This document shows positions 12,305 through 64,000 of a DNA stretch of 64,000 nt, piece by piece. Numbering within the stretch: the first letter of the stretch is position 1; each line of letters opens with the position of its first letter. The position numbers were made by a program, and so were the translations under genes. The notes under the pieces are model-generated. The model saw only the letters and a list, made by a program, of their open reading frames with translations. It did no database searches and was not told where the DNA came from. Source of the stretch: Acidobacteriota bacterium (GTDB lineage: Bacteria; Acidobacteriota; UBA6911; RPQK01; JAJDTT01). The stretch is from positions 1,728,001-1,792,000 of the forward strand of contig OZ253580.1 of assembly GCA_965263035.1 (NCBI GenBank), given 5' to 3'.

Positions 12305-12333
12305 TTGACAATCCCGGAACTTTCCTATATAAT
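12305..12333 (+). promoter_or_regulatory. Consensus sigma70 promoter of the IS1595 transposase
   Basis: TTGACA (12305-12310), 17 bp, TATAAT (12328-12333); AGGAGG RBS before ATG 12359. Confidence 0.8.
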
Positions 12334-12358
12334 ATGTCTTGTAAGTCAGGAGGCTGCA

Positions 12359-15338: not shown

Positions 15339-15495
15339 GACAAGACCCCCTTTCCGTTCTCGTTTCCAAGCCGGGCGCGTGCTCGAAAGATCTCGACAAA
15401 AAGCGCGTAAGCGACTGAGGAAAACACTCATTCATAATACACTCATCGAACCGGTGAGGAACTCGTGCAAGCCCCGGGCAGAGGTTTCGACTGAG

Positions 15496-16848
15496 ATGTA
15501 TGGCAGAAGACTGTCGAGGCGGGACCTGCTGAGCCGGATGGGCGCCGTCGCCGCCGGCCTGGGATGGAGTTGGCATCCGGGCCTTGTTGCAGCGGCGGGA
15601 AGTCCCGCCGGGTCCTTCCTTCTCTCCCGCCAGGGATGCGGCCGGGCCACGGGGTACTCCGAATCCAACAAGATCGTCACCTGGCGCCGCCGGACTCACG
15701 TGGCCTGGTTGGATTCACCCCCGGAGGGTTTCCGGGTCCGGGTTCGAAGCTGCGATCGAGGCACCGGGGAGTGGTCTCCCACCGTCACCGCCGGTCACGC
15801 CCATGACAATCACGGAGGGCCCGCGTTCACCGTCGACAGCGCAGGCTATCTCCACATCGTCTACTATCCCCACCACCATGCCATGTGCTACCGCCGATCG
15901 CGCCGGCCCGGGGATTCCTCCGAGTGGGAGGAAGAGGTCCGATTCGGCGAGCGCCTGACCTATCCGACGCTGGTTTGCGGCCCGGACGACACCTTGTTGC
16001 TGAGCGCCCGCCGCAGCTTCGCGAATCGTCCCTGGGAGGTGGAACTGTGGGAGCGGCAGCGGGGCCGGCAGTGGCAGCGCCGACGTGCCCTTTTGAAGTC
16101 ACGCCACCCCGGTTACTCCCATTTTCAGGAGTCTCTCGCCTGGGGGCCCGATCACCGGACGCTCCATCTGTGCTGCCGGTTCCACGAACGGTCGGACAGC
16201 CAGGCTTACGGCCGTCTGCAGACGGTGGCCTACCTGGTGAGTCCCGACGCCGGCCGGACCTGGAACCGCAGTGACGGAACTCCGGTCTCCCTCCCGGCGA
16301 CGCCCGACTCCGCCGAGGTCCTGGCCCGGGGGGGAGTGGACCAGAGCAGACTTCTCCGGGCAGGAGCCCTGTCCGTGGATGCCGGCGGGCGGCCCCACGC
16401 CGTCTACAGTGATGAAGAGGGGGGCCGCTCCCGGCTGATCCTGGCTCGCCCCAACGGCGACGGAAGCTGGGACCGCACGGATCTGAGCCGGTTCCTGCCC
16501 GTGCAGTGGAAGGATCGGCTCCTGCTGGCGCCGGCGGGGGTCACATTTACCTCGAGCGGCGAGATGGTCATCGCGGCACAGATCGAGCCACCCGTGGACG
16601 GCTCCTCCTCCTGGGGCGGTTCCGGAAACGAAGTCGTGGCCTTCAGGTCTCCGGACGGAGGAAGGAGTTTCACGGTTTCCCCGATCAGCCGGCCGGATGG
16701 GAACCGGGCGCACTGGCTGCCCAATATCGAGCGACCCACCGGCCACAACCGGGTTCCGGGGAAGCCCGGCCTTATTTACACCGGAGGCGGTCCGGGCACC
16801 AAGAATACGGATCTCCTGTCCAACCAGGTTTTCTTCTCCTGGGGATGA
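15496..16848 (+). CDS. Tat-exported BNR-repeat (BNR_4-like) protein
   Basis: SRRDLL twin-arginine signal; HDNHGGP..VDSAGYLH, YPTL, VSPDAGRTW and SPDGGRSF Asp-boxes. Confidence 0.8.
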   Translation: MYGRRLSRRDLLSRMGAVAAGLGWSWHPGLVAAAGSPAGSFLLSRQGCGRATGYSESNKIVTWRRRTHVAWLDSPPEGFRVRVRSCDRGTGEWSPTVTAGHAHDNHGGPAFTVDSAGYLHIVYYPHHHAMCYRRSRRPGDSSEWEEEVRFGERLTYPTLVCGPDDTLLLSARRSFANRPWEVELWERQRGRQWQRRRALLKSRHPGYSHFQESLAWGPDHRTLHLCCRFHERSDSQAYGRLQTVAYLVSPDAGRTWNRSDGTPVSLPATPDSAEVLARGGVDQSRLLRAGALSVDAGGRPHAVYSDEEGGRSRLILARPNGDGSWDRTDLSRFLPVQWKDRLLLAPAGVTFTSSGEMVIAAQIEPPVDGSSSWGGSGNEVVAFRSPDGGRSFTVSPISRPDGNRAHWLPNIERPTGHNRVPGKPGLIYTGGGPGTKNTDLLSNQVFFSWG

Positions 16849-49529: not shown

Positions 49530-49899
49530 AAATGAAGGTCCGCTCGATCATGCCGTACGGCGTTCAAAAACACCCAGGATTCGATAGCGAACGATTACGG
49601 ACTTGCACCAGGACCAATTCTCCTGGCCGGGTGAAGGCCAGTGATCATTTTGCGAGCCTATTAGCAGGCGGACGCGGTGGTCGCGAACTCACCGGCCGGG
49701 TCCTTGCGACGTCCTCCAAGTCCGAGCGACTCCACGCGCCAGGCTCTCGCAATCCTTGAATGGGACCCTTGGGGACCGTACTCTGCTGGCAATGACCGTC
49801 CCGCATTTGCTGTCTGAGACTGTTCTGAAGCTGATTCTTCCGGTCAGGAAAGCGATCCGATGCCTGATGCCGGCAATGGAGTTCGTTACCAAGAGAAGT

Positions 49900-52254
49900 A
49901 TGCTGGTACATTCCGGCGCAGCCGCAGTCTGTCTGGGTCTGGCGACACCGTCCGCCGCTCAGGAGGCCGCCGGGTCCGCGGAGAAGGTGCCGGACCGGTT
50001 CGTAGAGCTATGCTCCAGTTGCCACGGTGAACAGGCCCAGGGCACCGAACGGGGCCCTTCGCTGGTCCACAGCCGGAACCTCCGAAGCCTTTCCGACGAC
50101 CAGATTCGCGCCGTCATCCGCAACGGTACGCCGGGAGGGATGCCGCCGTTCGCGATGGAGGACTCGGCGCTGGCGAACTTGGCGGCTTGGGTCCACTCGC
50201 TGAACGCCTCGGCCTACGATGTCCAGCCGCCCGGAGACGTCCTTGCCGGCGAGCGCTTCTTCTTCGGACAGGGCGAGTGCGGGACCTGCCACATGATCGC
50301 GGGCCGCGGCGGCATCAACGGCCCCGATCTCTCGGATATCGGACGTCAACTCACCGTACGCCAACTGGACCAGTCGCTGGACGACCCCCTTGCGCGCGCT
50401 GCCGTCCGCTCTTCCGATTCCTGTCCCGGTTGGGCCTTCTGTCCCGAAAACCCGTGGGAGATCGCCACCGTCCAACAGCGCGACGGATCCGTATTGCGGG
50501 GGTTCGTTCGCAAACGCGGGATGCACGACCTGCAGCTTCAGACGCTCGACGGGCGCTTTCACCTGCTGCTCGACACCGAGTACACCGGCATCTCCATCGA
50601 ATCAGAACCCCTGATGCCGGCGCTCGTGGCTTCGGCCCGGGAGCGCCGCGATCTGGTGGCCTATTTGAGCCGGCGCGGCGGCACTCCGGTCGGTCCCCTG
50701 GCCAGTGAACCGGAACCGGTGTCGGACGAAGAAATGCAGCGAATCCTCTATCCGGAACCCGGGGAGTGGCCCACCTACAACGGAAACCTGAACGGCAACC
50801 GTCACAGTCGTCTCGATCAGATCAACACCGGCAATGCCGGGAAGTTGCGCCTTGAATGGTCCTATTCCATTCCCTACACACCTCTCGAAACGACTCCGCT
50901 GGTCAGCGGCGGGATCATGTTCGTGACCGGGCCGAACCGCGTCTGCGCGTTGGACGCGCGCACGGGACGGCAGATCTGGTGCTACGTCCGTCAGCGCAGC
51001 CAGGCGGGCACCATTTCCGGCGACGCCGCGATCGGAGCGAACCGTGGAGTGGCGATCCTGGGTGACCGTGTCTTCTTCAGTACCGACGATGCCCACCTCA
51101 TCTGTCTGAACCGCATCACGGGCGGATTGATGTGGGATGTCGACATGCCGGATCCGGACCTCCCGGGGCCCTACGGATCGACCAGCGCGCCGCTGGTGGT
51201 CAACGATCTGGTCATCGCCGGGGTCGGCGGCGGCGACGAGGGAATTCGAGGCTTCCTGGACGCCTACACGGCGGCGACGGGAGAACGCGCTTGGCGTTTC
51301 TGGACCGTCCCGGCGCGGGGGGAGCCGGGCTCGGAGACCTGGATTGGCGACGCCATCGAACTCGGCGGCGGGGCCACCTGGCTGACGGGGTCCTACGACG
51401 TCGAATCGGGATGGCTCTACTGGACCACCGGAAACCCCTGGCCCGATACGGACCCCACCGACCGAATCGGTGCGAACCTCTATACCAACTCCGTCGTGGC
51501 GCTCGACGTGAAGACCGGAAAGCTGCAGTGGTACTTCCAGTTCACCCCGGCCGACGTTCACGACTGGGACGCCACCGAGCCGGTCCTCCTCGTGGACACC
51601 GAGTTTCAGGGACAGGACCGGAAGCTCCTGCTGCAGGCAAATCGCAACGGTTTCTACTATGTCCTCGACCGCACCAACGGCAAGTTTCTGCTGGGGGAAC
51701 CCTTCGTCAAGAAACTGACCTGGGCCAGCGGCATCGACGACAACGGTGCGCCGCAACTGCTCCCCGGCAATGAGCCGACGCTGGGCGGAGCAAAGTCGTG
51801 TCCCGCCGTGCGGGGAGCGACGAACTGGTATTCGACGGCCTTTCACCCGGCGACCCGGTTACTTTACGTGATGGCCGTGGAGGACTGCACCATCTACCAG
51901 AAGGCTCGGCTCGGGGGGTTCTTGCCGTACCGGAATCCGGAGGACCCGCCCCAGAAGTTTCTGAGGGCGTTGGAAGTCGACACGGGGAAGATCGCCTGGG
52001 AGATTCAGCAGGTCGGCACACCCGAGTCGAACTACTCCGGCGTCCTGTCCACCGCTGGCGGAGTCGTATTCTACGGCGAGACGGGCGGCAGCTTCGCGGC
52101 GGTCGACGCCAAGAGCGGCGAGACTCTGTGGCACTTCGAGGCGAACCAGATCTGGAAGGGCTCGCCCATGGCCTACGCGGTCAAGGACAAGCAGTACGTC
52201 GCCATCGCTTCGGGCGGGAACATCCTCTCGTTCGCGTTGTCCGACTTGGAGTAG
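49900..52254 (+). CDS. PQQ-dependent dehydrogenase with N-terminal c-type cytochrome domains
   Basis: CSSCH and CGTCH heme motifs; WPTYNG, ETTPLV, NRGVA, GGATW, WDAT, RNGFYYVLDR, GATNW; exact start uncertain (49876 or 49900). Confidence 0.9.
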   Translation: MLVHSGAAAVCLGLATPSAAQEAAGSAEKVPDRFVELCSSCHGEQAQGTERGPSLVHSRNLRSLSDDQIRAVIRNGTPGGMPPFAMEDSALANLAAWVHSLNASAYDVQPPGDVLAGERFFFGQGECGTCHMIAGRGGINGPDLSDIGRQLTVRQLDQSLDDPLARAAVRSSDSCPGWAFCPENPWEIATVQQRDGSVLRGFVRKRGMHDLQLQTLDGRFHLLLDTEYTGISIESEPLMPALVASARERRDLVAYLSRRGGTPVGPLASEPEPVSDEEMQRILYPEPGEWPTYNGNLNGNRHSRLDQINTGNAGKLRLEWSYSIPYTPLETTPLVSGGIMFVTGPNRVCALDARTGRQIWCYVRQRSQAGTISGDAAIGANRGVAILGDRVFFSTDDAHLICLNRITGGLMWDVDMPDPDLPGPYGSTSAPLVVNDLVIAGVGGGDEGIRGFLDAYTAATGERAWRFWTVPARGEPGSETWIGDAIELGGGATWLTGSYDVESGWLYWTTGNPWPDTDPTDRIGANLYTNSVVALDVKTGKLQWYFQFTPADVHDWDATEPVLLVDTEFQGQDRKLLLQANRNGFYYVLDRTNGKFLLGEPFVKKLTWASGIDDNGAPQLLPGNEPTLGGAKSCPAVRGATNWYSTAFHPATRLLYVMAVEDCTIYQKARLGGFLPYRNPEDPPQKFLRALEVDTGKIAWEIQQVGTPESNYSGVLSTAGGVVFYGETGGSFAAVDAKSGETLWHFEANQIWKGSPMAYAVKDKQYVAIASGGNILSFALSDLE

Positions 52255-52304
52255 GAGTCTGCGTTTCCCTGCAAGTTGGATGTGATCCAGTTTTGAGCAA
52301 CGGG

Positions 52305-53576
52305 ATGAAGACGACGCCCAGGAGACGGGATTTCATCAAAGGGGCGGTCGGTTTGGCGGCAGGTCTGCTGGCCGGATCCTGCCTCAGTGACTCCTCCGAA
52401 AGGTCGAACCGACAACCCGGGAGCGGCCCGTCCGGAGGTGGCATCCCGGAGAAAAAAGGAAGGACCATGATCGTAGACTCGCACGCCTACGTGTTTCTGC
52501 CCGGGGACGAGCCGGCTGGGCATGCCAACTCCAAAGAGCACCTGGCCTGGATCCAGGCGGCTCACGCGGGACATCATCAGCCCGCCTGGAGGATCCGAGA
52601 CCGGGCGCCTGCCTCATCCGAGCCTCTGGCGCCAGGGGGATTCAAGAGTCTGTCCGACCTGCCCGACGTGAACTTTCGAGTGGATCACGAGCGGGGCGGA
52701 GTCGTCTGGACCGTCGACGGAGAAGACTTCACCAAACAGTTTTACCCACCCAACCTGAGAAACCTGGAATTTACTCCCCACAGCCTCATCGCCGAGATGG
52801 ACTACACCGGCGTGGACGTGACGCTGCTCCACACCGATCCCATGTTGGTCCGGGACAGCCGTTACCTGGCGGACAGCGTGCGCCTCTACCCGGATCGGCT
52901 TCGCTCCATGGCTCCCGTGGATGAGTGGCGGATTCCGTCTGAAACCGACGCCGTGATCCGGGAACTGGACACGGCCATCAACGGGTTCGGTCTTCACGCC
53001 ATCAAGTTCATTCCCCCTCTGGGATACGTGAGCAGCGATGAGCCCTGGGACGATGGCCCCTACCGGCCGTTTTGGGAGGCGGCCACCTCCTGGAAGGTTC
53101 CGGTCTTCTTCACCCTGGGTACGGGACCCGGCGCGGTGTCCGTCGAGGACCAGCGCCTCGGGTATCTCAACGAATTGGGGATCCTGATGCGTTGGATGGA
53201 ACGGTATCCGGACACGGTGTGCAGTCTCACCCACGGGTTTCCGTGGCGCGTGTTTCTGGATGGGAATGGGGTCCGTCTGCCGCAGGACATCTGGCAGCCT
53301 TTCCGGAATCCGAAATGCAATCTGGAGGTGAGCTTTCCGGTGCGGCTCGGCGATCTCTTCGACTACCCCTACCGGGAGGTGTGGCCCACGCTGGAGGCGA
53401 TGGTGGAACACGTCGGTCCAGATCAACTGCTGTGGGGCACCGACATGCCCTTCCAGAACCGCTTCTGCACCTACCGGCAGTCCCGCGACTGGATCGAGAA
53501 ATACTGCCGTTTCCTCGGTGCCGAGGACCTCGCCAAGATCATGGGCGGGACGGCGGCCCGCATCCTGAAGCTGTGA
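52305..53576 (+). CDS. Amidohydrolase family protein, possible Tat signal
   Basis: RRRDFIKG; VDSHAYV; LLWGTDMP; IMGGTAARIL. Confidence 0.85.
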   Translation: MKTTPRRRDFIKGAVGLAAGLLAGSCLSDSSERSNRQPGSGPSGGGIPEKKGRTMIVDSHAYVFLPGDEPAGHANSKEHLAWIQAAHAGHHQPAWRIRDRAPASSEPLAPGGFKSLSDLPDVNFRVDHERGGVVWTVDGEDFTKQFYPPNLRNLEFTPHSLIAEMDYTGVDVTLLHTDPMLVRDSRYLADSVRLYPDRLRSMAPVDEWRIPSETDAVIRELDTAINGFGLHAIKFIPPLGYVSSDEPWDDGPYRPFWEAATSWKVPVFFTLGTGPGAVSVEDQRLGYLNELGILMRWMERYPDTVCSLTHGFPWRVFLDGNGVRLPQDIWQPFRNPKCNLEVSFPVRLGDLFDYPYREVWPTLEAMVEHVGPDQLLWGTDMPFQNRFCTYRQSRDWIEKYCRFLGAEDLAKIMGGTAARILKL

Positions 53577-53582
53577 AACTGC

Positions 53583-53673
53583 GTAGGAGCGGCGGCTTTC
53601 TTGCCGCCGATTGGGGGGTCTGGGGGGCTTGAAGCCCCCCTCCTCAGTCAGGCGACAAGAAAGTCGCCCCTCC
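53583..53673. repeat. REP cluster starting with GTAG, between convergent genes
   Basis: GTAGGAGCGGCGGCTTTCTTGCCGCCG...GGGGGGCTTGAAGCCCCCC...GGCGACAAGAAAGTCGCCCCTCC. Confidence 0.75.
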
Positions 53674-53675
53674 GG

Positions 53676-54749
53676 TCATGCCGCGACGTCGGCAACGGCC
53701 TTGTTCAAGGCGGGCATCAGCTCCTTGGCGAACAGTTCCAGGTTGCGGATCCAGCTGGCCTTGTCGTCCCAGTCGAAGCCCATCAGGACCAGGGTGCCGA
53801 AGGGACCGCTCTCTTCCATGAGCTCCAGCAGGCGCCGGAGCACCTCGTCCACGTCCCCGGCGATGATCTGCTCTTTCAGCCAGAAATCCAGGTTGCAGTC
53901 GGCGTCCGGCATGTCTAGGTCGCGCTTCAGGATCCCCCGGTGCCCCAGCGAATTGTCCAGCAGGGAGGCGATGTACTCGTAGTTCCCGCCCACCGAGTTG
54001 TTGCGCGCCAGCTTCACGGCCTCCTCGGTGGTGTCGGCGAGGAAAATGGCGCGACAGACCTTCCAGTCGGCAGGATCGGCTTCCCGGCCCGCCTCGGCGG
54101 CGGCCCTGGCGTAGGTCGCCCAGTTGTCCGCCAAGACGTTTCCAGCGGCGAGTGCGGCCGAGAAGGGAGCGTACCCGCGTTGGCCCGCCAAGCTGAGGGA
54201 GCCCGAGTTGCGGCTGAGCCCCGGTATTGCGATCGGTGGATGCGGCTGTTGCAGGGGTTTGAATATGTATCCGATCCCCGTCGCTTCATCGACGTTCTCT
54301 TCGAGCGAGAACTGCCAGAATTTCCCATCGTGGTGGTAGGGCGGGTCCGACGCCCACAGTTTCAGGATGACGTCCAACGACTCCCGCGTCATCGCACCGC
54401 CATCCTTGGGATGCTGGCCGTAGAGCTCCATGTCGGTGCTGACGCTGTTGGGTCCGAAGCAGAGGTTGAGCCGTCCCTTGGAGAGGTGATCCAGAAACGC
54501 GAGCCGCGTGGCCACGTAGGCGGGATGGTGCAGATTGTGGCACACCGGCGCGGCCCCCAGACGAATGCGTTCGGTCACTCCGAGTACGCGGCCGATGAAC
54601 ACCTCGGGGACCACGATGGGCTCGAACCTCATGGTATGGTGCTCGCCGATCCAGAACTCGTCGAAACCGAGCTCCTCCGCCCGGACGGCCAGTTCGGCAT
54701 CCTCGTCGAAGCACTGAGCCAGCGGCTTGCTCGAAGGATGGTAGGGCAT
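53676..54749 (-). CDS. Luciferase-like (LLM) flavin-dependent monooxygenase
   Basis: AEELGFDEFWIGEHH, RLAFLDHLSKGRL, PLQQPHPPI; the true start is probably a few codons upstream. Confidence 0.92.
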   Translation of the reverse strand: MPYHPSSKPLAQCFDEDAELAVRAEELGFDEFWIGEHHTMRFEPIVVPEVFIGRVLGVTERIRLGAAPVCHNLHHPAYVATRLAFLDHLSKGRLNLCFGPNSVSTDMELYGQHPKDGGAMTRESLDVILKLWASDPPYHHDGKFWQFSLEENVDEATGIGYIFKPLQQPHPPIAIPGLSRNSGSLSLAGQRGYAPFSAALAAGNVLADNWATYARAAAEAGREADPADWKVCRAIFLADTTEEAVKLARNNSVGGNYEYIASLLDNSLGHRGILKRDLDMPDADCNLDFWLKEQIIAGDVDEVLRRLLELMEESGPFGTLVLMGFDWDDKASWIRNLELFAKELMPALNKAVADVAA

Positions 54750-54990
54750 GATGAAAATGCCGGTTTTTCAACCGGCGATGCAGAGAAACTGCTTGAATGA
54801 GGATAGATCTATCACGCTGGGGTGACAGGCGCAAGGGAAGAAGGAAGGGAGGGAGATGCGCCCCTCCCAAGGCGTGGCCTGGATCTTCACCCGGTCGTCG
54901 TATTTGGTTGGTCTGGAATTTCGGCGTGGTGTGGCGGCAGTTGGCAGTGTCCTAATTTGGTCCGGGACGCTGTTCTGTTAGCATCCGCAA

Positions 54991-55016
54991 TGGAGCCGGC
55001 GTCGGGAATCGAACCC
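54991..55016 (-). other. tRNA 3'-end duplication (att site), probably tRNA-Thr-derived
   Basis: Minus strand reads GGGTTCGATTCCCGACGCCGGCTCCA (T-arm, acceptor 3' strand, CCA); no anticodon or D arm upstream. Confidence 0.8.
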
Positions 55017-55051
55017 TGGAGTGATCGGTTTCAAACAGCGACAAGGGCCAA

Positions 55052-55327
55052 ATGAAAATGGAGAGAAGACATACTGTATTGACCTGGTTCTGTTTGGGTC
55101 TCTTGGTCGCTCATATCCTGAACCACGATGAAAAGGGACCAGCTGACCACGCCAAAGATATTTTCAATTCTTGGATCGAGTGGATCTACTGGGGAGTGAC
55201 GGTCTTCTGGAATTGGATATGGATTAGGGGCGGATGGATCTGGGTATTGGTCATTGCGATATGGGTCACGGTAAAGAAGGTCAGACGAGCCAACGCCGAG
55301 CAGAGTGATGGGCCTTCGGAGAAATGA
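55052..55327 (+). CDS. Small membrane protein (element cargo)
   Basis: 91 aa, Trp-rich hydrophobic segments followed by a basic KKVRR tail. Confidence 0.55.
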   Translation: MKMERRHTVLTWFCLGLLVAHILNHDEKGPADHAKDIFNSWIEWIYWGVTVFWNWIWIRGGWIWVLVIAIWVTVKKVRRANAEQSDGPSEK

Positions 55328-55621
55328 CCGCTCATGCTTCCCCAGGAAGTCAAGGCAGGAATGAAGTGCCGGGGACTGAGTTCTGTTTCAATCCCCGACA
55401 CTGGGGCTGCTAGGTTTGGGACCGCTGCCCGTGGAGGGCTTGCAGGAGAAGTTCCAAGTAGGGACCTCCGACTAGCACACCTGCCGTCTCAGGACCGGGC
55501 CATCTTCTCTAGCACGGGATGGCCGGGATCTCCAGCGTGCGCTCTTCCAAATGCCGGATTTGGAAGAATGATGTTGGCCGCCACCCGAAATATCACACCT
55601 GATTGTTAAACTTGACAAGCA

Positions 55622-56269
55622 ATGGAGGATCTAAGTTGCCTTTCGTTTGTCGCTTGGCCCATGGCTGCGGTCCTCTTTGGAGTGGCTTTCTTGTTGCTGT
55701 TCCGAAAACAGATCCGCCAGCTCCTTGGCCGAGCCAAGAGTTTCGGCAAGGAGGGCTTCCGTTTCGGCGAGGAAGGCGACCGTGCCTACAAGGACCCGCA
55801 ACCCTCGGCCAGAAGGCCTGACGCCCCCACCGAGTTCTATGACGAGTTCGAGAGTCCTCTGTTTCTTGAGGTAGAGTCTGACATTGAAAAAGAATTGCAG
55901 GATCGAGGAATCACTGATCCAATCTTCACTAGAAAATTCTTGTTGAAGACGCTGGCCAGAACGTTCATCTTTCGCCAGTTCGAGGCAGTTCATAGTGTCA
56001 TCTATGCAAGTCAGTTAAGATCGCTGATGTTCCTCAACATACAGCCCACACTGACGACTACGGCTGAACTCAAGTCCCGCTTCTACGACACCGCCGTCGT
56101 TAACTTCCCGATGACGTACAAGGACCGAGCGTTTGGCGAGTGGCTTGGTTACCTTCAGCTCCAAGCGCTGATTATTGGGAAGGAGGAGCGGATAAGTCTC
56201 TCTCTTCGGGGTCGAGAGTTCTTAAAATGGCGTGTGGATAATGGGTTTCCCGAGCCGCCGTTTGTCTAA
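55622..56269 (+). CDS. N-terminally membrane-anchored hypothetical protein (element cargo)
   Basis: WPMAAVLFGVAFLLLFRKQI TM helix; C-terminal wHTH-like ISLSLRGREFL. Confidence 0.7.
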   Translation: MEDLSCLSFVAWPMAAVLFGVAFLLLFRKQIRQLLGRAKSFGKEGFRFGEEGDRAYKDPQPSARRPDAPTEFYDEFESPLFLEVESDIEKELQDRGITDPIFTRKFLLKTLARTFIFRQFEAVHSVIYASQLRSLMFLNIQPTLTTTAELKSRFYDTAVVNFPMTYKDRAFGEWLGYLQLQALIIGKEERISLSLRGREFLKWRVDNGFPEPPFV

Positions 56270-56294
56270 TAGCCCATAATCACTCTGAATCCCG

Positions 56295-57314
56295 TCATCT
56301 CAGACCCGCCAGCCGTTCGGCATCTTCCGCAGACCACCCCGCCGCCCGCAAAGTGGCAGCACCCCGGATGCGTCCGGGCAGGTTGTCCGCTTGCAAGGAT
56401 TCGGCCATGTTCCACTGAAACGGCGTTTCCAGGACTCGGGCGAACTCTTCCGCCCAGGTGGAGACCCAACCGGAGACGACACCCCGGATCCAGGTGGCCA
56501 GCGTGTCGCGCCGTGCAGTCGCTCCGGTGGCCGTGATCCCTACCAGTTGCGGAGGGAATCCAAGCGACTGCGCCACGGCTGCGCCCAGCTTCTCGTACAG
56601 TTGCAGGACAGGCCCAGGCACGTCTACACCCAGGCGAAGTAACGCGGGGGGTGTATTGCCTTGCATATTGTCTCCCAGGACAGAAGCGCCGCCACGCATT
56701 TTCGATAGCATCTTGGAGGTATGAGCGTACCAGTCCACTGCGCCGCCGCTCGCCCCTGCGACCCGTGCCAGTACCTTCCCAGTCGGTCCGGCAGTCTCTT
56801 CCCCAAACCGGAGTACAAGCCGGGCGAGTGCTACGCCGTCAGGTCCGGCCACGTCCAGCCAAGACCGCCCACGCCATGGCCGAGACGGGTCCGGGTGTAG
56901 CTTCAAGTGGGCGACACTCTCCGGCCCTAGTCCGTTGAGCGTGACGCTACGATCAGGCCCAGGGATTTCTACGTCATAGATCAGCGCATCCAAGCGACCT
57001 CTTAATGAGACGACGTGCGCCGGGTAGAGCATGGGCGATCCGTTCATGATGCGAACGACAAAGAAGGCCTGTCCATTCTGGACCAGCCGCGCAGCCGCCC
57101 AAGGAATCCATGGGCGGATCGTATCCGGTGGAGCACCAGCGGACAGGGCAGACGCCAGCCTTGCGGAACAGGCACTCACAACCGCCGGGACCCGTCCCCC
57201 GACCGATCCTTTATAGACACTCACCTGATTCTGCGGTAGCCATTCGGACAGGGCGTCCGAACGGGTCTGGACCTTCGGCTGGGTCTCCAGGCGTAGCAGC
57301 GTCAGACCAGCCAT
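56295..57314 (-). CDS. Phage portal protein (short, divergent)
   Basis: PAVVSACS.RLA..LS, LVQNGQAFF, VAHLK...WRGRS.L, VAQSLGFPPQLVG; follows the protease. Confidence 0.75.
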   Translation of the reverse strand: MAGLTLLRLETQPKVQTRSDALSEWLPQNQVSVYKGSVGGRVPAVVSACSARLASALSAGAPPDTIRPWIPWAAARLVQNGQAFFVVRIMNGSPMLYPAHVVSLRGRLDALIYDVEIPGPDRSVTLNGLGPESVAHLKLHPDPSRPWRGRSWLDVAGPDGVALARLVLRFGEETAGPTGKVLARVAGASGGAVDWYAHTSKMLSKMRGGASVLGDNMQGNTPPALLRLGVDVPGPVLQLYEKLGAAVAQSLGFPPQLVGITATGATARRDTLATWIRGVVSGWVSTWAEEFARVLETPFQWNMAESLQADNLPGRIRGAATLRAAGWSAEDAERLAGLR

Positions 57315-57805
57315 TTTCTCGGCCTCCGGCGCGGTTCCGGGTCTGTTTCTATGAGGTGGCGGATCTCTTCCACTTCCGACCGTGGATAGGCTTGTCTGTC
57401 CACCAAAGCCAGCCCGCGAAGGGTGCCGACCGAGACAACCAGTACCTTCCCTTGCGCCCGAGTCTGACGCCGGACGAACTCGATACTGACGCCTTCGAGG
57501 ATACCGCCACGGATCAAGACGGCCGCGTCTCTCCCGTCGCCCGTGTCCGGGAGCGTCAGGGAGAAGCGGAGGGCCGTGGGCGTGTCCGTCAGGACCAGGC
57601 CGCCATCGGGAAACCGCCCTAACAAGCGGTCCCGGCGGTGGCCCAGATTCATGAAAACCGGACCCGCCAGCTCGCCAAATGCGCCCGGTTGGATGCGTTC
57701 ACGGGTCCCCAGGCGATCCAGGATCAGGGATGGCTGCCCGTACACGATGGCGACCCCGGAGACGATGCCGGGACCGTCTCCGTTGTCTTGTCTGATTTCC
57801 AGCAT
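57302..57805 (-). CDS. HK97-type prohead protease
   Basis: VSGVAIVY, ERIQPGAF, GH (His), LPDT..GRD, GVSIEF (Ser), LVD..AYP. Confidence 0.9.
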   Translation of the reverse strand: MLEIRQDNGDGPGIVSGVAIVYGQPSLILDRLGTRERIQPGAFGELAGPVFMNLGHRRDRLLGRFPDGGLVLTDTPTALRFSLTLPDTGDGRDAAVLIRGGILEGVSIEFVRRQTRAQGKVLVVSVGTLRGLALVDRQAYPRSEVEEIRHLIETDPEPRRRPRKWLV

Positions 57806-57817
57806 GGCGTGAACGCC

Positions 57818-59062
57818 TTACGGGAGCGACAACTTGCGCCGGGAATACGCCTTGGCGTCGATCAGCTTGAAGTTGGTCAACAAGATAAGATCGACGTAAA
57901 CCTCGCCCTTCGCCGACCCCGTGTAGGTATCGAGAATCGAAGTCAGTCCGTCTTCCCAAACCGGAGACACGGCGGCGGTATGGTCCGCTTTGCCGCACCA
58001 CGTCAACGAGTCTTGCTTGTTAGATGCCGGGTCGGGAATGTGCGCCGACGTGAAAATACTCGACCCCACGTCAGATATCAGGCCGGACAGGTCCGCCGCC
58101 AGTTGGGGCAGCCCGATACTCGTTAGTGTCCCGACCAGGACACGATAGGACTGGACACCCAGTGCGATCTTTACCATTTTCAAGTCGCTGGCATATTTGC
58201 CGTCAATCACACTCGCCATGCCTTGCAGGACGGTCCCGACAGAGATGTCGTTCAAGTCCGCGCCCGCCGTCAGGGACGGCAGCAGACCGTTGATAACATC
58301 GTTTCCGGTCCCGAAGGTATTGAGGGACATTTGGTCCAGACTTTCTTCCAGAGCTGCGCGAGCTTCACGCCTCAGAGCGTCTTCAAACATGGCGACCATT
58401 GCGGCGTCTTCGCGCCGCCAGCCGACACGGACCTGGACCCGCTTCGGGGTCGCAGTCTTCGGCGTCAGGGTCCAGGCGGAGGCGTCCACGGTTGCGCCCT
58501 TCGCTGCCGAGGCCGGGGTGACGCCGGAGGACACGTGCTGCCATGCGGCTGTCCCACGTGGGACCATTGGAAACTGACATCCCATGCGTCTCGCGGACAG
58601 TCTCGCGGTCACTCGGTCAATAATGCTCTGGACATTGACGGCGGTTCCGGTGGCCGGGGCTTCGCTGTAGGCATCGGCGCGAATCTGGACCCGCTCTGCA
58701 TGGTCCAGGAGTCCGACCCAAGGGATAGAATCTCCGCCGCCGGTTTCCTGCCGATATTCCAGACTCTCGCCCGTGGGCCGACCAAACAGGAAGCCGGACA
58801 GGTTCACGCCGTCTTCCAGGCGGGCGAACTCCAATTGATCGGCGGATAGGTCGCGGTTCTGGGTTTCCTTCTCCCGTTCCTTCGGGTCCGGCGCAGTTTC
58901 GACGGCGATCCGCCAGCGGCTTTCTACATCTTCAAGTTCGGCCCGCTTCTGCGTTAGGGTCGTAGTCTGATCTTCCGTCAGTGTCCCTTCGGCGAATAGT
59001 AATGTGTTTATTTCGGTCCGTAGAGTGGACTTGCGGACTTCAAGCTGCTGAATCTGAGTCAA
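57818..59062 (-). CDS. Major capsid protein (HK97 fold, N-terminal scaffold domain)
   Basis: 414 aa with helical coiled-coil N-terminus; LTPK..., LD...L.G.G.....GL capsid-like pattern; lies beside protease and portal. Confidence 0.8.
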   Translation of the reverse strand: MTQIQQLEVRKSTLRTEINTLLFAEGTLTEDQTTTLTQKRAELEDVESRWRIAVETAPDPKEREKETQNRDLSADQLEFARLEDGVNLSGFLFGRPTGESLEYRQETGGGDSIPWVGLLDHAERVQIRADAYSEAPATGTAVNVQSIIDRVTARLSARRMGCQFPMVPRGTAAWQHVSSGVTPASAAKGATVDASAWTLTPKTATPKRVQVRVGWRREDAAMVAMFEDALRREARAALEESLDQMSLNTFGTGNDVINGLLPSLTAGADLNDISVGTVLQGMASVIDGKYASDLKMVKIALGVQSYRVLVGTLTSIGLPQLAADLSGLISDVGSSIFTSAHIPDPASNKQDSLTWCGKADHTAAVSPVWEDGLTSILDTYTGSAKGEVYVDLILLTNFKLIDAKAYSRRKLSLP

Positions 59063-59107
59063 TGTCTTATCCTCCCTGGTCGATTCATTTTGTTGTACAC
59101 TTATCCA

Positions 59108-59389
59108 TTATCCTGTATGTGTGTACAATAAATCAAACACAGCTTGTCCCCATGCCGTCCGCTCCGGGCGGTCCATGGCCTCATGGAGCATTTTATGGTC
59201 CCGATAACAGACACTTTGCAGGTTATCCACGTCCCACGGGTCGCCACCTTGCCGGATCGGTTCAACGTGGTGGACAGTGGTTGCAAGGCGTCCGCACCCG
59301 CAGATCGGGGACAGGGACAATTTCCAGGAACGGAGGGATTTCCAACGCCTGGTATTGTAGACGCGCCTATGAGCCTCTTTCCTCGTCAT
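59108..59389 (-). CDS. HNH endonuclease (HK97 gp74-like packaging cofactor)
   Basis: YNTRRWKSLR...PIC.CG...VHHVEP...DNLQSVC..DH; ATGA-coupled to terL. Confidence 0.9.
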   Translation of the reverse strand: MTRKEAHRRVYNTRRWKSLRSWKLSLSPICGCGRLATTVHHVEPIRQGGDPWDVDNLQSVCYRDHKMLHEAMDRPERTAWGQAVFDLLYTHTG

Positions 59390-60849
59390 GCGATCCACTC
59401 TGAGGCCGGGGGGGTGTAGTACAGTTGCGGTGGCGTTTGCCTGGACCTCCTGGACCCTTCCCCTATCGCCAGAACCGCAGCTATCGCAGCATCATTATTT
59501 CGTTGCGCCCCTTCCCTGGATCGTTTCGTGATCTTCGGATTTCCCGCCGGGTCCCGCACTAACAGGGATGCCGCCAGAGCGATCCGCATAAGTAGAGATG
59601 GTCTGGACCTTATTCTCTTCTCTAACAGCGTCCGGGTGAACTCCCTAACATCGTTTGAACTGTCACGGAATCCAAGTCCCCTCCACTCCACAAGTAGGCC
59701 AAGAGACGCCAGCGCGTCTTCCAGTTCCGGTTTACGGTAGCGGTCCGCCAGTACCACTTCCGGCGTCCCGAATCGTTCTATGGCGTCGGACAGGACCAGG
59801 GCCGGGGGTGTCGTTCGGGTCCCTGGAATCATCACCAACTCGCCCCTTCGGACCATGGACGAATAGACCCCTATATTTCCGTCTTTCTCTTCCCGTCTGG
59901 CAAGCGTGGGAATGTCTCCGAAGTATCCGGCCACTTCCAGCCGTCCCGTTTGATACCAATAGGCGGCAGCACCCGTCATGCTGCGACCTCCGCCCAAATC
60001 CAAGCCCAGGACCATGGGACCGGATCGTTCCGGGAGCGTGTCGGTTTCGGCCATGCGAGTCCATTCGTGCGACGTACATAAAACATCTTCAACCAACTCG
60101 GAATTACCCATATTCAGCCGCAGATTCCTGAAAGACGCCATAGCAGCGGCCGATTTCGCGGCGTCTTCGGATTCCTCTTTGATGGCAGATTCCAGGGCCT
60201 CAAATCCGGGTAGACCCAACGATGGATTAGCAGACCGCCATGTTTTCGGGTCCAATGGATCGGAGTCCCGTTCGGCGTGCCAGATCAAACCGGAAGATTT
60301 CAACAGGTCTTCAAACCAGTGGCCTGCGCCGTCACTTGGCCTGGTCCCGGTGATGATCAATTTAGATCCGGGAGTCTTCCCGAGTCCGGTCCGCAAGGCG
60401 TTAAAAACCCTTTGTCCGCGAGTATTTGGAAAGCTGGACGGTTCGTCTATGATGGCGCACTTGAATCGTTTTCCTGTCAGTGAGTGCGCCGACCCTGCTA
60501 CGGCGCACAATTTGACATTCCATGGGAATTCGATTTGTTTTAATTGCGGATAATCTCGGATTTTTACGCCTATTTCCTTCCAGTCCGGGACCATTCGGCA
60601 GTAGGCGTCCACGGCGTCTCTCCAACTGATTCCAGCTTGTCCCAAAGTCGGACCAGCAATGAGCACGTCATATCCGGGAGCGTGTCCGGGTCCGGCTGAA
60701 AAATAGACCGCAAGTCGTGCGGCTTCAACACTTTTTCCGTTCGACCTCCCCATGGAGTAGGCGACTACGGAGCGGCCATTCGGGTCCAGGATTCGAGCCT
60801 GGACCTGGAGACCCCAGGGGGTGTCAGGGTACGGAAATTGTGAAATCAT
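59386..60849 (-). CDS. terL: Terminase large subunit
   Basis: Walker A GRSNGKS, Walker B AIIDE, coupling motif ITGT, W.SANPSL, nuclease GLDLG and NDAAIA. Confidence 0.92.
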   Translation of the reverse strand: MISQFPYPDTPWGLQVQARILDPNGRSVVAYSMGRSNGKSVEAARLAVYFSAGPGHAPGYDVLIAGPTLGQAGISWRDAVDAYCRMVPDWKEIGVKIRDYPQLKQIEFPWNVKLCAVAGSAHSLTGKRFKCAIIDEPSSFPNTRGQRVFNALRTGLGKTPGSKLIITGTRPSDGAGHWFEDLLKSSGLIWHAERDSDPLDPKTWRSANPSLGLPGFEALESAIKEESEDAAKSAAAMASFRNLRLNMGNSELVEDVLCTSHEWTRMAETDTLPERSGPMVLGLDLGGGRSMTGAAAYWYQTGRLEVAGYFGDIPTLARREEKDGNIGVYSSMVRRGELVMIPGTRTTPPALVLSDAIERFGTPEVVLADRYRKPELEDALASLGLLVEWRGLGFRDSSNDVREFTRTLLEKRIRSRPSLLMRIALAASLLVRDPAGNPKITKRSREGAQRNNDAAIAAVLAIGEGSRRSRQTPPQLYYTPPASEWIA

Positions 60850-61103
60850 CTATGTGTGCTTCCTAATTATATGCACGTATTCTTATCAGTGTATTCCTAT
60901 AATTCCATAAACCCTGACATATATTGAGACCTGAGGTGGAAACCCGGTTTCACGGATTCGGGCCGGGGGGTAGGGAACCCTTTTTATGAACATGTTAGTG
61001 CACATGTTCGCGCCTGATACCGTGATAATCTGTGCCTTAGTGAATCTTTGGACCTGATCTATTGCACTGTCATATAGTTGTTTAGTGGACACTGCATTAG
61101 TTA

Positions 61104-61439
61104 CTAACCTATCCTGGTCTGTCCCAACCTTCGGATCAGCGTGCCCCGGCTTGTCTTCGGGCGCTTCAACTCTCGATCGACGGCTTTTCGTAGAACCTCG
61201 ACACTCAGGTCGAATGCCCCGCAAATCCAGACGACCGTTCCCACGTCACCCCGCTCCGAGGCAAGCCATTCCAGGGCGTCCAGTTGCGCTTCCCGCTGTA
61301 TACCGTGATCGAGCGCTGGCCCGCAGCCCAGGCAGTCCGACAACGAGACCGTCAACACTCGCAGCCAAAGCCGCCTCACAGAGTCCAGGCGCGGGGTGTA
61401 TTCCGGTACATCCGCCACTATTGCCGGCAGTCTTCTCAT
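61104..61439 (-). CDS. Hypothetical phage protein (possible late-gene regulator)
   Basis: RRLWLRVL...DALEWL.S......WICGAFDL...LR pattern; lies upstream of terL. Confidence 0.55.
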   Translation of the reverse strand: MRRLPAIVADVPEYTPRLDSVRRLWLRVLTVSLSDCLGCGPALDHGIQREAQLDALEWLASERGDVGTVVWICGAFDLSVEVLRKAVDRELKRPKTSRGTLIRRLGQTRIG

Positions 61440-61585
61440 GAAGCCAGTATACGATAAATTGGGTGTTTCGTTTTCACGGAAGGGACAAGCGGCAAGGTGG
61501 GGACGATGGGTCCATGGATACTGCCCTTGTATGGCACCCTGACCGCATAACGCGGGTGGACACGTATCCATGGACCCCGAAACGC

Positions 61586-61825
61586 TTAGAGGGCGTGTGG
61601 CGGCTTTATGGGCCGGTTTCTATTTCTCTCGATTTCCTGGTACAGTTTTTCATCGTCATCGCCGTCGCTGATCTTCTCCATGGCGTGAGCCATATCCCAC
61701 GCCTGTTTCAGCCATTCTGGCTTCAGCCAATTTGGATCCAGGGCGCCTCGGGGTGCCTTGCCCAATCCCTCAGCGACAATCCTCCCTGACACGACCTGAC
61801 CAAAGAAATAGTCGATTCTTTTCAT
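61586..61825 (-). CDS. Hypothetical phage protein
   Basis: MKRIDY start preceded by a GGAG RBS. Confidence 0.5.
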   Translation of the reverse strand: MKRIDYFFGQVVSGRIVAEGLGKAPRGALDPNWLKPEWLKQAWDMAHAMEKISDGDDDEKLYQEIERNRNRPIKPPHAL

Positions 61826-61994
61826 TCTCCATCCTCCTTCGAGGTTTGCGTTGCCCACAATGGCAACGCAACGAGTTAATGATTTGGACTAACCACGTCG
61901 GTTTGTCTTCTTACAAACCTATAATACTCCGCACTCACAAAACGTCGGTGGCGGATTTTTCACTTATCAATTTTTTAAGATATGGGGGATTCCT

Positions 61995-62129
61995 GGTACA
62001 AGCGAGTACAAGCGAACCTCACACCAAGAACCTAAGAGTTAATTTTTTCTCTTCTCTTCTCTTCCTCTTAGGAGGAATCTTACTCTTAGGAGGTTCTTTG
62101 GTGTAATGTTCGCTTGTACAAGTTGTACC
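61995..62129. repeat. Long imperfect inverted repeat with GTACAA iterons (putative origin)
   Basis: GGTACAAGCGAGTACAAGCGAAC...CCTAAGAG mirrored by CTCTTAGG...GTTCGCTTGTACAAGTTGTACC around a pyrimidine-rich spacer. Confidence 0.6.
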
Positions 62130-62143
62130 GAGTGGAGGTGCCA

Positions 62144-62830
62144 TTAGTCCGAATCCTCACCCGTGACAGGATCTCGACCCATGACCTCGTACTTCCTCCA
62201 GTTCTGGCGAAACAGTTGGAAGATCTTGCTAGTGGGTGAGAGACCGCTTGTGTTCTTGGTAGTGATCCAGTGCTGAGACTCCACCCACTCCAAATACTCC
62301 CGGCACAAAGCCAACTGACCCGTGCCCAGAAGCCGAAGTAACTTCCACCCCATTCTCTTTTGCCGTTCTCCTACCCACTCGGCCAGGTCTAGATAGGCGT
62401 CTTTTGCCCCTTCTCCAAATAGTCTCTGTGCCAGTTGGAGGTCATTTTGCAGACCCTCAATCATTGATGGTGTTGGATAGGAGAGGAAGTCCTCAATCCG
62501 GGCATCCAACGTTGATGTGGGTCTTGATGTGGATGTGTGTAAAACAGGCTTCGCCATGGGCTTCGGTGCCTTGGTGATCTTGGTGTTCCTGTGTTCCTGC
62601 AAAATCTGAGACACCCGCTGTTGACTCACACCCCATTTCCCGGCGCATTGAACTTGCGTCAGTCCACTTTCGTAGTCGTTGATGATGTGGGTCCATCTAG
62701 GTCGCGCGCGACCTCTGCGACGACGCCCGCCTCTTAACCCGTCCCTTCTCCCTTTCCAGCTTTTCAGACCCTCTTCTGAGTTGGTGAACCGGCTTCGGGC
62801 CTCCTCACACTCGTCAACGATCTCCTCTAG
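62144..62830 (-). pseudogene. C-terminal part of an HTH-containing phage protein, interrupted by IS1380
   Basis: GLTQVQCAGKWGVSQQRVSQIL HTH; the reading frame abuts the IS end at 62831. Confidence 0.65.
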
Positions 62831-64000
62831 CCTGCATTTCTCATCAGTAGAACAATAAACGGAAGTTGAACCGTCGTCTGGGTGATTCTTTATCCATACG
62901 AGTTCAAGAGGCAGTTTTCGTGCTCGAACGTGCCGACCAACGGCCAGATGCAGCGCTTCTCCAGAGCCTTTTGACGCCCATCCTGCGCTTCTGAGCGACG
63001 ACTCTCGACCCGGTGCCCACTCCGGGGCGCAGTCCATCCTGGGGACTCCCAAGTCGCCATCGTCCAAAGAGTTCTTTCCATCCGTTGCTAACAGCGAAGC
63101 GGGAGGGCTTGCACTTGCGTCAGAGCCGTCCTCAACAGCGCCGCATACGGATAGCTCTCGGAAAAGGACAACCAGACCTTGCGGCTGGTGATCCGGACCT
63201 GTGCCCCGATCTTCAGCAATCTCACCCGCAGGGTCCAGCTCTGCGCCCGCGCCAGCTTCGTCCCCGCCAGCCCCACCCGTCGCAACGTCTCCATCATCAC
63301 GTAGGCGAATGCCGAGAAATACAACCGCAGTTGATTCCCCGCCAGCTTCCGGGTCGACGTGCGGTCCGCAAACAGACCCATCTGCTGTTCCTTTATCCGA
63401 TTCTCCATGTCTCCCCGCGCGCAGTAGACCTCCTCGTACAATCTTCGCCCATCGCATTCCTGGACCGGGACCGAAGTCACGATGAATCGCGGGTTCTTTC
63501 CCCGGGGCAGGTGCTCCACCTTCGCCACCACCCGGCGCTCGCACGACCAACTCTTGTGCGTCTGATAGCGCAGTTCCTGGAACTGCCTCACGGCCTTCCC
63601 GATCGCCCGCTGCAACTGCCGGACGGTCTCCATCCGGGTCGCGATCCTCCGCTTCAGCCGATCGTTCTGCGCCAACCCCAGGACGTAATCGATCCCTTCC
63701 TTCTCGCACCAGACCATCAACTCGTCGTTGGAGAAGGCACTGTCCCCTCGAACCGTGATCCGCACCTGGGGCCACGCTTCACGCAGCCGCCTCACGATTG
63801 GTTCCAACTCCGCCACCACCCCGTGGGCCGCGCCTCGATCCGCCGTGCGCAGCCGCGCACGCAACAGGTGTTCCCCACAGAAGACGTACAGCGGCAGGTA
63901 GCAGTAGCGTTTGTAATAGCCGTGGAAGAACCGTCCCTCCTGCTTCCCATGCAGCGGATCGTCCGTGGCGTCTACATCCAGGATCACCTCCTCCGGGGGC
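62831..64000 (-). mobile_element. IS1380-family element, partial (transposase 3' part 63088..>64000)
   Basis: LDVDATDDPLHGKQEGRFFHGYY..YCYLP, RGDSAF, YCARGDMENRIKE; terminal ...GAGAAATGCAGG followed by CTAG. Confidence 0.92.

Follow-up and report, generated by a model that had tools for sequence, protein, structure and literature searches.

A compact island in a soil-type Acidobacteriota genome, designated E1, carries virion genes only for a large terminase (TerL), an HNH endonuclease, an HK97-type major capsid protein (MCP), an S78 protease and a portal, and the same set in the same order recurs in diverged copies. With a probability of about two in three, we consider E1 to be a mobile island, integrated at a specific site, that belongs with the capsid-forming phage satellites. 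It is best read as a new reduced satellite lineage which is closest to the capsid-forming islands known as cf-PICIs but lies below their defining gene set. The element measures 11,743 bp, or about 9.97 kb without an inserted IS1380 element. The window, that is the whole stretch of DNA analysed, has a length of 64,000 nucleotides and ends within E1; positions above 64000 are extrapolated window coordinates, and L001 denotes the locus carrying E1. The features of the element are as follows:

54755..64000, minus strand: part of E1 inside the window; the whole element continues to extrapolated position 66510
54755..54767: attL, left copy of the 13-bp direct repeat AAATGCCGGTTTT, located as an exact repeat
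54992..55016, minus strand: tRNA 3'-end-like fragment (T-arm, acceptor stem, CCA) within E1, unique in L001
55052..55327, plus strand: hydrophobic 91-aa ORF, convergent to the head operon; E1-specific candidate cargo
55334..55609, plus strand: 91-aa ORF of doubtful coding status; no library match, no homologue in other loci
55622..56269, plus strand: convergent 215-aa ORF, E1-specific candidate cargo; no match at E<=0.5-1, no homologue in other loci
56295..57314, minus strand: portal, HK97/GTA-type, 339 aa (Foldseek and family-level PF04860)
57302..57805, minus strand: prohead serine protease, S78/HK97 type, 167 aa (PF04586 Peptidase_S78 1.8e-13; phrog_80 9.2e-18)
57818..59062, minus strand: major capsid protein, diverged HK97-type Phage_capsid, 414 aa (family-level PF05065)
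59108..59398, minus strand: HNH endonuclease, 96 aa (PF01844 7.5e-8; phrog_144 3.1e-14)
59386..60849, minus strand: large terminase TerL, 487 aa (phrog_9 7.3e-50; PF20441 4e-6)
61104..61571, minus strand: 155-aa ORF just upstream of TerL, conserved in four loci (family A5)
61586..61858, minus strand: 90-aa ORF, no matches in Pfam, PHROG or NCBIfam
62144..62826, minus strand: 3' part of an IS-split, E1-specific HTH gene (about 330 aa when whole), weak HTH signal
62827..64000, minus strand, on to extrapolated 64599: IS1380-family IS, 1,773 bp (PF13701 2.6e-148; NF033539 7.8e-116)
64600-64905 (extrapolated, beyond the window): 5' part of the IS-split HTH gene
64927-65226 (extrapolated, beyond the window): 99-aa ORF
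65481 to about 66458 (extrapolated): tyrosine integrase at the far end of E1 (PF00589 2.9e-18 on L001 11481-12539)
66498-66510 (extrapolated, outside the window; L001 12498-12510): attR, right copy of the repeat

E1 is a discrete site-specific island that was inserted by a tyrosine integrase and left 13-bp direct repeats. A metagenome contig joins position 756 of L001 to position 12500, skipping 11,743 bp, and represents the empty site, which lies at the 5' end of a gene for a luciferase-like monooxygenase. Alignment of the junctions to congeneric empty sites showed that the site is unoccupied in all of the other genomes of the genus (8/8). In six congeneric genomes the host genes flanking it are separated by 82-273 bp, and in the genomes G403 and G404 attB is intact, with an insertion of about 4 kb further along. 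No attP joint was found among the metagenome joints listed, and a direct-repeat scan with a minimum of 14 nt has a size floor above the 13-bp att. The initial annotation had predicted a far att with an integrase and no tail genes before it, and this is what the 11.7-kb element contains: a tyrosine integrase and no tail match. The near att had been placed 1.3 kb from the end of the head operon, at the tRNA-like fragment. This junction was rejected, since the fragment lies inside E1 and the true repeat is located 1.53 kb from the portal stop, about 240 bp off. Scans for tRNAs found a complete one neither in the window nor in L001, and none identical to the fragment in the genome, so that the fragment does not have the status of an intact target. 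Scans for promoters (6 hits versus 3.6±2.0 after shuffling) and terminators (11 versus 8.3±3.1) stayed close to the shuffle expectation.

The head and packaging operon (56295-60849) consists of five intact, co-oriented minus-strand ORFs in the order TerL-HNH-capsid-protease-portal, exactly where they had been described, with 25 bp between the stop codon of the portal gene and the convergent ORF. The usual phage order is portal-protease-capsid, and the arrangement in E1 contrasts with it. The best phage relatives of TerL are about 25% identical, HK022/HK97-like coliphage terminases among them. The HNH ORF overlaps the TerL stop, and from its position we take the protein to be an HK97-gp74-like packaging accessory. 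The protease matched TIGR01543 with 3.8e-10, under the cut-off of that model. The 414-aa and 339-aa proteins gave no direct match in Pfam, PHROG, NCBIfam or PDB sequences; despite this, their labels as capsid and portal proved right at the level of their families.

For the capsid, 6 of 15 family members matched PF05065 Phage_capsid (best 1.9e-9), and a paralogue in the same genome reached 31.6 bits on this model against a cut-off of 24.2. The E1 protein itself matches the intact paralogues of the genome with phmmer values from 7.7e-31 to 1.7e-14, and its look-alikes in a language-model search are Phage_capsid clusters. At its N-terminus a coiled coil (about residues 1-93) is reminiscent of a delta/scaffolding domain. 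Sequence and profile searches of the E1 capsid against the PDB gave nothing significant, the best hit being 8ecn, a major capsid protein, with an E of 0.16. The AF2 capsid model is poor (pLDDT 39.8), with confidence in the N-terminal helices only; it was discarded as fold evidence because a wide structure search returned only generic coiled coils at residues 1-68. For the portal, Foldseek matches of the AF2 model listed from the PDB were portal or portal-vertex/neck structures, including RcGTA 6tba (3.3e-6) and HK97 8fql (4.2e-5), with TM values of just 0.26-0.38 and a model pLDDT of 54. Viral portal models were matched as well. In addition, PF04860 was matched by 10 of 16 members of the portal family, and the family profile found the PDB portals 9i8c (2.5e-9) and that of RcGTA (2e-5). 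Comparison of the five head genes with their closest relative, the G200 copy, yielded a pN of 0.23-0.28 and a pS of 0.66-0.76, and as judged from these sequences the genes are intact and under purifying selection.

Searches of the E1 ORFs against Pfam, PHROG and NCBIfam revealed no match for tail, lysis, adaptor or connector genes at E<=0.5-1, and no primase-replicase or other replication family. A recognisable small terminase (TerS) was likewise missing from the three libraries' results, as had been proposed, and no regulator of the AlpA, MerR or Stl type was recognised in E1. Profiles of the neck genes from sister elements (gp10-like A9 and X1 A3) also matched no E1 ORF at E<=1. The absence of neck genes from E1 is read from libraries that missed its own capsid and portal directly, so that very diverged neck proteins could escape them. 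Four families searched across the whole genome (tape measure PF10145, sheath PF04984, baseplate J PF04865, Terminase_6N PF03237) remained without a match, and thus no resident tailed prophage was detected by them.

The 155-aa ORF has no Pfam or PHROG match; its family has members in L001, L023, L024 and L027 and eight unnamed homologues, and it is an unproven candidate for a small terminase or DNA-recognition protein. The hydrophobic ORF at 55052-55327 showed a weak similarity to DUF4870 (0.0069, below the cut-off) and no homologue in the 14 other loci. The two parts of the HTH gene flanking the IS, translated separately, gave weak matches to Sigma70_r4/HTH_3 and to phrog_2339 (7.8e-4). Because the IS splits this gene, E1 may be impaired in its regulation and this copy is possibly inactive. 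The insertion of the IS is recent. Besides the copy in E1 the genome contains 13 full-length copies (97.4-100% identity) and two 5'-truncated ones (about 96%), and an IS-free variant of E1 was seen in two metagenome runs.

E1 is not a singular case. The same genome harbors seven loci in all, E1 and six diverged copies, and eight further loci were found in five other Acidobacteriota genomes; a sample of 401 genomes from the phylum gave an MCP match in 8. The resulting 15 loci in six genomes share a compact head-only layout with a gene set of 8-12 kb, and they differ in their integrases and insertion sites. In 12 loci an integrase was found no more than 3 kb away from the head module, and host genes adjoin the elements at distances of a few kb. 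As to gene order, the MCP lies upstream of the portal in 15/15 loci, and the complete co-linear order TerL-HNH-MCP-protease-portal is present in 9/15. Within the genus the distribution is patchy (5/9 genomes, 0-7 copies each). An exact-repeat search for the att sites of six sister elements gave nothing convincing.

Tail genes were not found in any of the 13 loci with screened flanks, and the relatives are not complete prophages. In these screens, which used heuristic calling of ORFs of at least 75 aa, the PHROG tail category was represented in 0/141 and 0/128 ORFs and the Pfam tail families in 0/122. The PHROG connector category was absent from the 141-ORF screen and gave one weak match in the 128-ORF screen (phrog_5 1.2e-4, L029:7032-7700). 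An HK97-gp10-like Neck1 gene is present in the sister element E3 and in L029 (PF04883 7.9e-8, the match in E3; phrog_5 4.3e-15). The claim that neck, tail and lysis genes are lacking therefore holds for E1 as far as detected, and its "no neck" part fits the subgroup of E1, not the whole family. A small gene adjoining the portal, X1, has a match in nine loci and is a separate gene in seven; its family has no Pfam or PDB match, and our impression is that it recalls gp6-like adaptors. L031 contains an excisionase/AlpA-like gene (phrog_2790 1.5e-12) with homologous ORFs in L030, L032, L033 and L034 according to BLAST clustering.

The wider MCP family comprises 1,598 clusters at 50% identity in genomes and metagenomes (E<=1e-30). 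Three MCP queries against 50,697 phage records gave none, one weak match and none, respectively. The single match, obtained with a sister MCP, was MT835917; it was rejected as a relative of the same layout because it is a phage fragment in canonical order, with large downstream ORFs at the usual place of tail genes. A locus search with the MCP alignment returned one locus in genome contigs and none in metagenome and viral contigs.

Literature searches for Acidobacteriota phage satellites, novel satellite families and head-only prophages identified no description of such an element. Among known systems the cf-PICIs come closest: in the available text of the two sources (PMC10085698; bioRxiv 10.1101/2025.02.11.637232) they are integrase-bearing islands of 10-18 kb with their own TerL, HNH, HK97-type capsid, protease and portal and no tail or lysis genes. 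Like EcCIEDL933 and KpCIDSM30104, E1 has the integrase and all five of these proteins, falls within the size range and shows no tail, holin or lysis match (PMC10085698, available text); small heads that need foreign tails would be expected in both. In contrast to cf-PICIs, E1 has no detectable adaptor, connector, primase-replicase or AlpA-type regulator and no recognised TerS, and for this reason it reaches 6 of 11 core components, whereas the weakest SatelliteFinder class needs nine (PMC10085698, in the part accessible). Its capsid and portal are also too diverged for direct recognition by Pfam or PHROGs. Finally, the host of E1 belongs to the Acidobacteriota, while the accessible text of de Sousa et al. 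(PMC10085698) gives Proteobacteria and Firmicutes. Classical PICIs/SaPIs and P4 resemble E1 as integrase-bearing islands of about 10 kb that are presumed to be helper-dependent, but they use a helper capsid which is merely resized, and E1 encodes capsid, portal, protease and TerL. With the HK97/HK022 group E1 shares the distantly related TerL, the HNH accessory, the S78 protease, a capsid with an N-terminal scaffold-like region and the portal fold. HK97 is a full phage that also encodes its neck, tail and lysis proteins and whose head genes follow the order portal-protease-capsid; none of the genes for these three functions was detected in E1, and its head order is reversed. RcGTA is among the best portal matches, both structural and by profile, and has a small head, as expected for E1. 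It possesses tail genes, lacks an integrase and packages random host DNA, whereas E1 integrates as a discrete element bounded by att repeats.

Spread of E1 by borrowing tails from another virus is the most likely mode; that E1 is one of seven related copies in the genome makes such spread probable, and we infer that E1 depends on a helper. After induction E1 would excise, and capsid protein and portal would assemble into a small procapsid, from which the protease would cut off the scaffold-like N-terminus of the capsid protein. TerL and HNH, perhaps guided by the 155-aa protein, would then cut and package the unit genome, about 10 kb long, by an HK97-like cos mechanism. For neck, tail and lysis the filled head would rely on a helper phage, acquiring its tail either inside the cell or after release as a tailless capsid that joins free tails. 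The latter route is described for cf-PICIs in the available text of bioRxiv 10.1101/2025.02.11.637232.

A spread that never involves a tail is unlikely. In this case tailless DNA-filled capsids would be transferred without a helper, by release upon cell death and uptake or in a GTA-like manner, in line with the lack of a detected tail or neck gene in E1 and of a tape-measure, sheath or baseplate-J match in the genome. Judging from head completion in HK97 and SPP1, a portal-bearing head would be expected to lose its DNA if closure proteins are lacking. Moreover, a gp10-like neck gene persists in sister elements and implies an interface with a tail, and no lysis gene was found in E1. Tailless DNA-filled capsids are reportedly released by cf-PICIs without a helper, but these are non-infective until they meet tails (bioRxiv 10.1101/2025.02.11.637232, accessible part). 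It is quite improbable that the loci are host-retained defence or interference islands whose head and packaging genes chiefly sabotage infecting phages, through competition for packaging or assembly, instead of moving the island. Defence-like cargo in relatives (SIR2_2 in L031, a DNA methylase in L030) and the toleration of seven copies in one genome would suit such a role; against it, the presence in the genus is patchy, and the integrases and att repeats point to mobility. Such a role would also fit in with satellite biology and does not form a true alternative.

Decay of complete tailed prophages, with each locus as a deletion residue, is very unlikely. L024, L028 and L033 are clearly degraded, their MCP or portal genes being split and ISs having inserted, and E1 itself carries an IS. 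However, the same restricted gene set occurs in 15 loci with differing integrases and sites, the five genes of E1 are intact and constrained, exact att repeats form its boundaries and relatives have empty sites. In addition, the screens found no tail-bearing relative, and sequenced phages contain almost no member of the capsid family. All predictions of the initial annotation that were put to the test were borne out: the recurrence of the loci, the far att with its integrase, the missing tail genes and the purifying selection support the original proposal of a distinct, more reduced family of capsid-forming satellites.

Tentatively, as a serious possibility, we extend this reading to a large capsid-forming satellite lineage of the Acidobacteriota, and probably beyond, that has next to no visibility in phage databases. 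The most reduced of its members, E1 among them, would have just five virion genes whose order is rearranged; they would either obtain the whole neck and tail from a helper or exit the cell as heads that are filled with DNA but tailless and catch free tails later, with up to seven diverged members per chromosome. Up to now, capsid-forming satellites have been reported from Proteobacteria and Firmicutes (PMC10085698); adaptor and connector genes determine their tail specificity. A separate reduced lineage in Acidobacteriota would, if true, widen this host range, show how few genes suffice for a transmissible head and provide a test case for a satellite portal docking directly onto a helper neck. 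The presence of seven diverged copies in a single genome, together with about 1,600 capsid clusters that have almost no member among sequenced phages, suggests that such elements make up a sizeable unannotated part of soil mobilomes.

The head module of E1, an 11,743-bp mobile island, is filled by five minus-strand ORFs, which ORF calling placed with small overlaps or short gaps between them. The features of the island are as follows, with extrapolated coordinates beyond 64000.

Features of E1
54755-54767 and 66498-66510: direct repeat AAATGCCGGTTTT, from the junction alignment
54992-55016: tRNA 3'-end-like fragment
56295-60849, minus strand: head module, with the next five genes in order
TerL, 487 aa (phrog_9, 7.3e-50; PF20441, 4e-6)
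HNH endonuclease, 96 aa (PF01844, 7.5e-8)
capsid protein, 414 aa
S78 prohead protease, 167 aa (PF04586, 1.8e-13; TIGR01543, 3.8e-10, under the TIGR01543 cut-off)
portal protein, 339 aa
62827-64599: IS1380-family element, 1,773 bp, within the ~330-aa HTH gene
far end, beyond the window: tyrosine integrase (PF00589, 2.9e-18)

The 414-aa and 339-aa proteins had no direct match in Pfam, PHROGs, NCBIfam or PDB sequences. We considered that the initial annotation had exchanged the two labels and rejected this, because structure and family profiles identify the smaller protein as the portal and the larger one as the capsid. The AF2 model of the portal (pLDDT 54, pTM 0.51) gave 32 Foldseek matches in the PDB at E<=1e-3; the matches listed are portal or portal-vertex/neck structures, with E values of 3.3e-6 for RcGTA (6tba), 4.5e-6 for GBSV1 (9i8c) and 4.2e-5 for HK97 (8fql) at low TM values of 0.26-0.38. 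The named BFVD viral models matching it are portals, PF04860 is matched by 10 of 16 portal family members, and the family profile matched PDB portals with E values of 2.5e-9 and 2e-5. The larger protein (414 aa) is a diverged capsid protein of the HK97 type. The language-model clusters closest to it carry PF05065, which is matched by 6 of 15 capsid family members (best 1.9e-9), and a paralogue in the host genome G000 exceeds the Pfam cut-off. Apart from an N-terminal coiled coil, which in the model resembles a delta or scaffolding domain, its AF2 model is poor. With both identifications the order is truly TerL-HNH-capsid-protease-portal, as originally proposed.

The E1 head module is a family member and not a remnant. 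The capsid profile detected seven loci in G000, six intact and one broken, and matched 8 of 401 sampled genomes of the phylum, 6 of them strongly; within the genus, five of nine genomes carry copies (0 to 7 per genome). Fifteen loci from six genomes were searched with profiles of E1's own proteins. The complete co-linear TerL-HNH-MCP-protease-portal layout was present in nine, and the major capsid protein (MCP) gene was located upstream of the portal in all 15. The terminase is inverted or replaced in loci L023, L032 and L034; L032 (genome G334) carries a lambda GpA-type TerL on the opposite strand (11077-12714; PF05876, 3.1e-40), followed by an IS21 element. Loci L024, L028 and L033 are degraded, and the arrangement in L028 resembles a circularly permuted version of the common order. 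In 12 loci an integrase lies no more than 3 kb from the head module; L032 and L033 have a clustered P4-type integrase ORF beyond this distance, and L028 contains split integrase pieces only. Where flanks were scanned with Pfam, ordinary host genes were found within a few kb.

The flank scans covered ORFs of at least 75 aa in 13 loci (all except L028 and L033). Two screens for PHROG tail-category matches yielded 0 of 141 and 0 of 128 ORFs, and Pfam tail families matched 0 of 122. The relatives are not complete prophages, as the satellite reading had anticipated: no tail gene was found in the flank-screened loci, and the layout recurs across the 15 loci. All five genes of E1 are intact and under constraint: compared with the closest relative, in genome G200 (63-69% amino acid identity, different integration site), pN was 0.23-0.28 and pS 0.66-0.76, and because dS is saturated the dN/dS of about 0.1-0.2 is approximate only.

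Several relatives showed additional features. Locus L031 (genome G367; 6234-7538, 12623-13891) has a second, canonical Phage_capsid gene (PF05065, 4e-16) directly upstream of TerL and a SIR2_2 defence-like gene between portal and integrase. The sister island E3 (L021 4462-4806, 14662-16290; about 5.35 Mb in G000) seems to split a phrog_15045-family host gene into pieces of 114 and 542 aa, and genes of this family also occur near the islands in L022, L023 and L026. Four or five tyrosine integrase genes cluster with a portal fragment (5648379-5648864) at 5.643-5.661 Mb of G000; this region may be one more decayed island or a hot spot for integration.

On the strand of the head genes, going upstream from TerL, E1 contains in order a 155-aa ORF, a 90-aa ORF, the ~330-aa gene with a weak HTH signal, a 99-aa ORF and the integrase. 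The 155-aa ORF is kept in four loci and had no family match, only 8 unnamed homologues; its position makes it a TerS candidate. The IS insertion interrupts the HTH gene and may have disabled a regulator of E1. G000 harbors 13 further full-length copies of this element at 97.4-100% identity and two truncated ones at ~96%. It looks active. Of the seven head-only islands, three (E1 and its sisters E2 and E7) have a copy inside or next to them; in addition to the copy in E1, coordinates are L022 ~13850-15620 and L024 ~12190-13960. No sister element has a homologue of the three convergent ORFs downstream of the portal (91, 91 and 215 aa), which are thus best read as cargo or non-coding.

The reported absence of neck genes holds for E1 and fails as a family trait, as this absence is not uniform. 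In E3 the gene directly upstream of TerL is HK97-gp10-like (PF04883, 7.9e-8, above cut-off; phrog_5, 'tail completion or Neck1', 4.3e-15), and a homologue is present in L029. A small accessory gene, X1 (104-134 aa), is located between protease and portal in seven loci; its profile also matches L028 and L032 and, marginally, L031. X1 had no match in Pfam or the PDB. X2, a P-loop gene matching part of phrog_4581, lies between capsid and protease in five loci. No E1 ORF was matched at E<=1 by the X1, X2 or gp10-like profiles. Since the libraries missed E1's own capsid and portal, diverged neck proteins could escape them as well.

E1 is inserted site-specifically between a luciferase-like monooxygenase gene and a GHL10-like gene, which are 82-273 bp apart in six of eight other genomes of the genus. 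The target is the 5' end of the monooxygenase gene, which lost ~18 N-terminal codons, as read from the junction sequences; left of the island (49756-54749) it is accompanied by an amidohydrolase and a PQQ-dependent dehydrogenase carrying a cytochrome c domain. In the closest relatives, genomes G403 and G404, attB is intact and shares the 13-bp core. Just past this empty site both carry an unrelated, intergenic insertion of ~4 kb (L036/L042 and L037/L043). The island is also polymorphic in populations. A metagenome contig of run X8 joins positions 756 and 12500 of the E1-bearing stretch L001, leaving out 11,743 bp, and so represents the empty site; contigs of runs X6 and X8 leave out 1,769 bp precisely over the IS and represent the island without it. 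Part of the head module was present in 20 of 24 listed runs from 10 studies; no circular form appeared among the read joints listed. The att site formerly placed 1.3 kb from the portal is probably the tRNA-like fragment, which lies inside the element, 225 bp inward of its left end. No full tRNA in the genome matches this fragment, which may be left over from an att site that once targeted a tRNA.

Among 1.84 billion entries, 5,113 cluster representatives matched the MCP profile at E<=1e-3, of which 1,598 also passed E<=1e-30; six of the ten best after P0016 stand for clusters including contigs >280 kb. Against 50,697 phage records, two of three MCP queries had no match and one had a weak match, to a phage fragment of canonical order. 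E1 TerL shares ~25% identity with its best phage counterparts, among them the HK022/HK97-like group. In G000, PF10145, PF04984, PF04865 and PF03237 had no match and PF04860 occurs in element portals only, so no resident tailed prophage was seen with these families.

The cf-PICI model of SatelliteFinder forbids tails and holins, and its weakest accepted class has 9 of 11 components (PMC10085698). For cf-PICIs, sizes of 10-18 kb are reported, with release of tailless DNA-filled capsids that then capture free tails and with tail specificity set by adaptor and connector (bioRxiv 10.1101/2025.02.11.637232). Of the 11 components of the SatelliteFinder model, E1 has six clear and two uncertain ones, and three were searched for and not found. 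On present evidence E1 therefore probably works like a cf-PICI but lies below the accepted set. It also differs in capsid and portal sequences, gene order and host phylum, and we file it as a variant of the capsid-forming satellite kind. E1 would excise and assemble small capsids, in which proteolysis would remove the N-terminal coiled coil of the capsid protein, TerL and HNH would package DNA by an HK97-like cos mechanism, and a helper would supply neck, tail and lysis functions.
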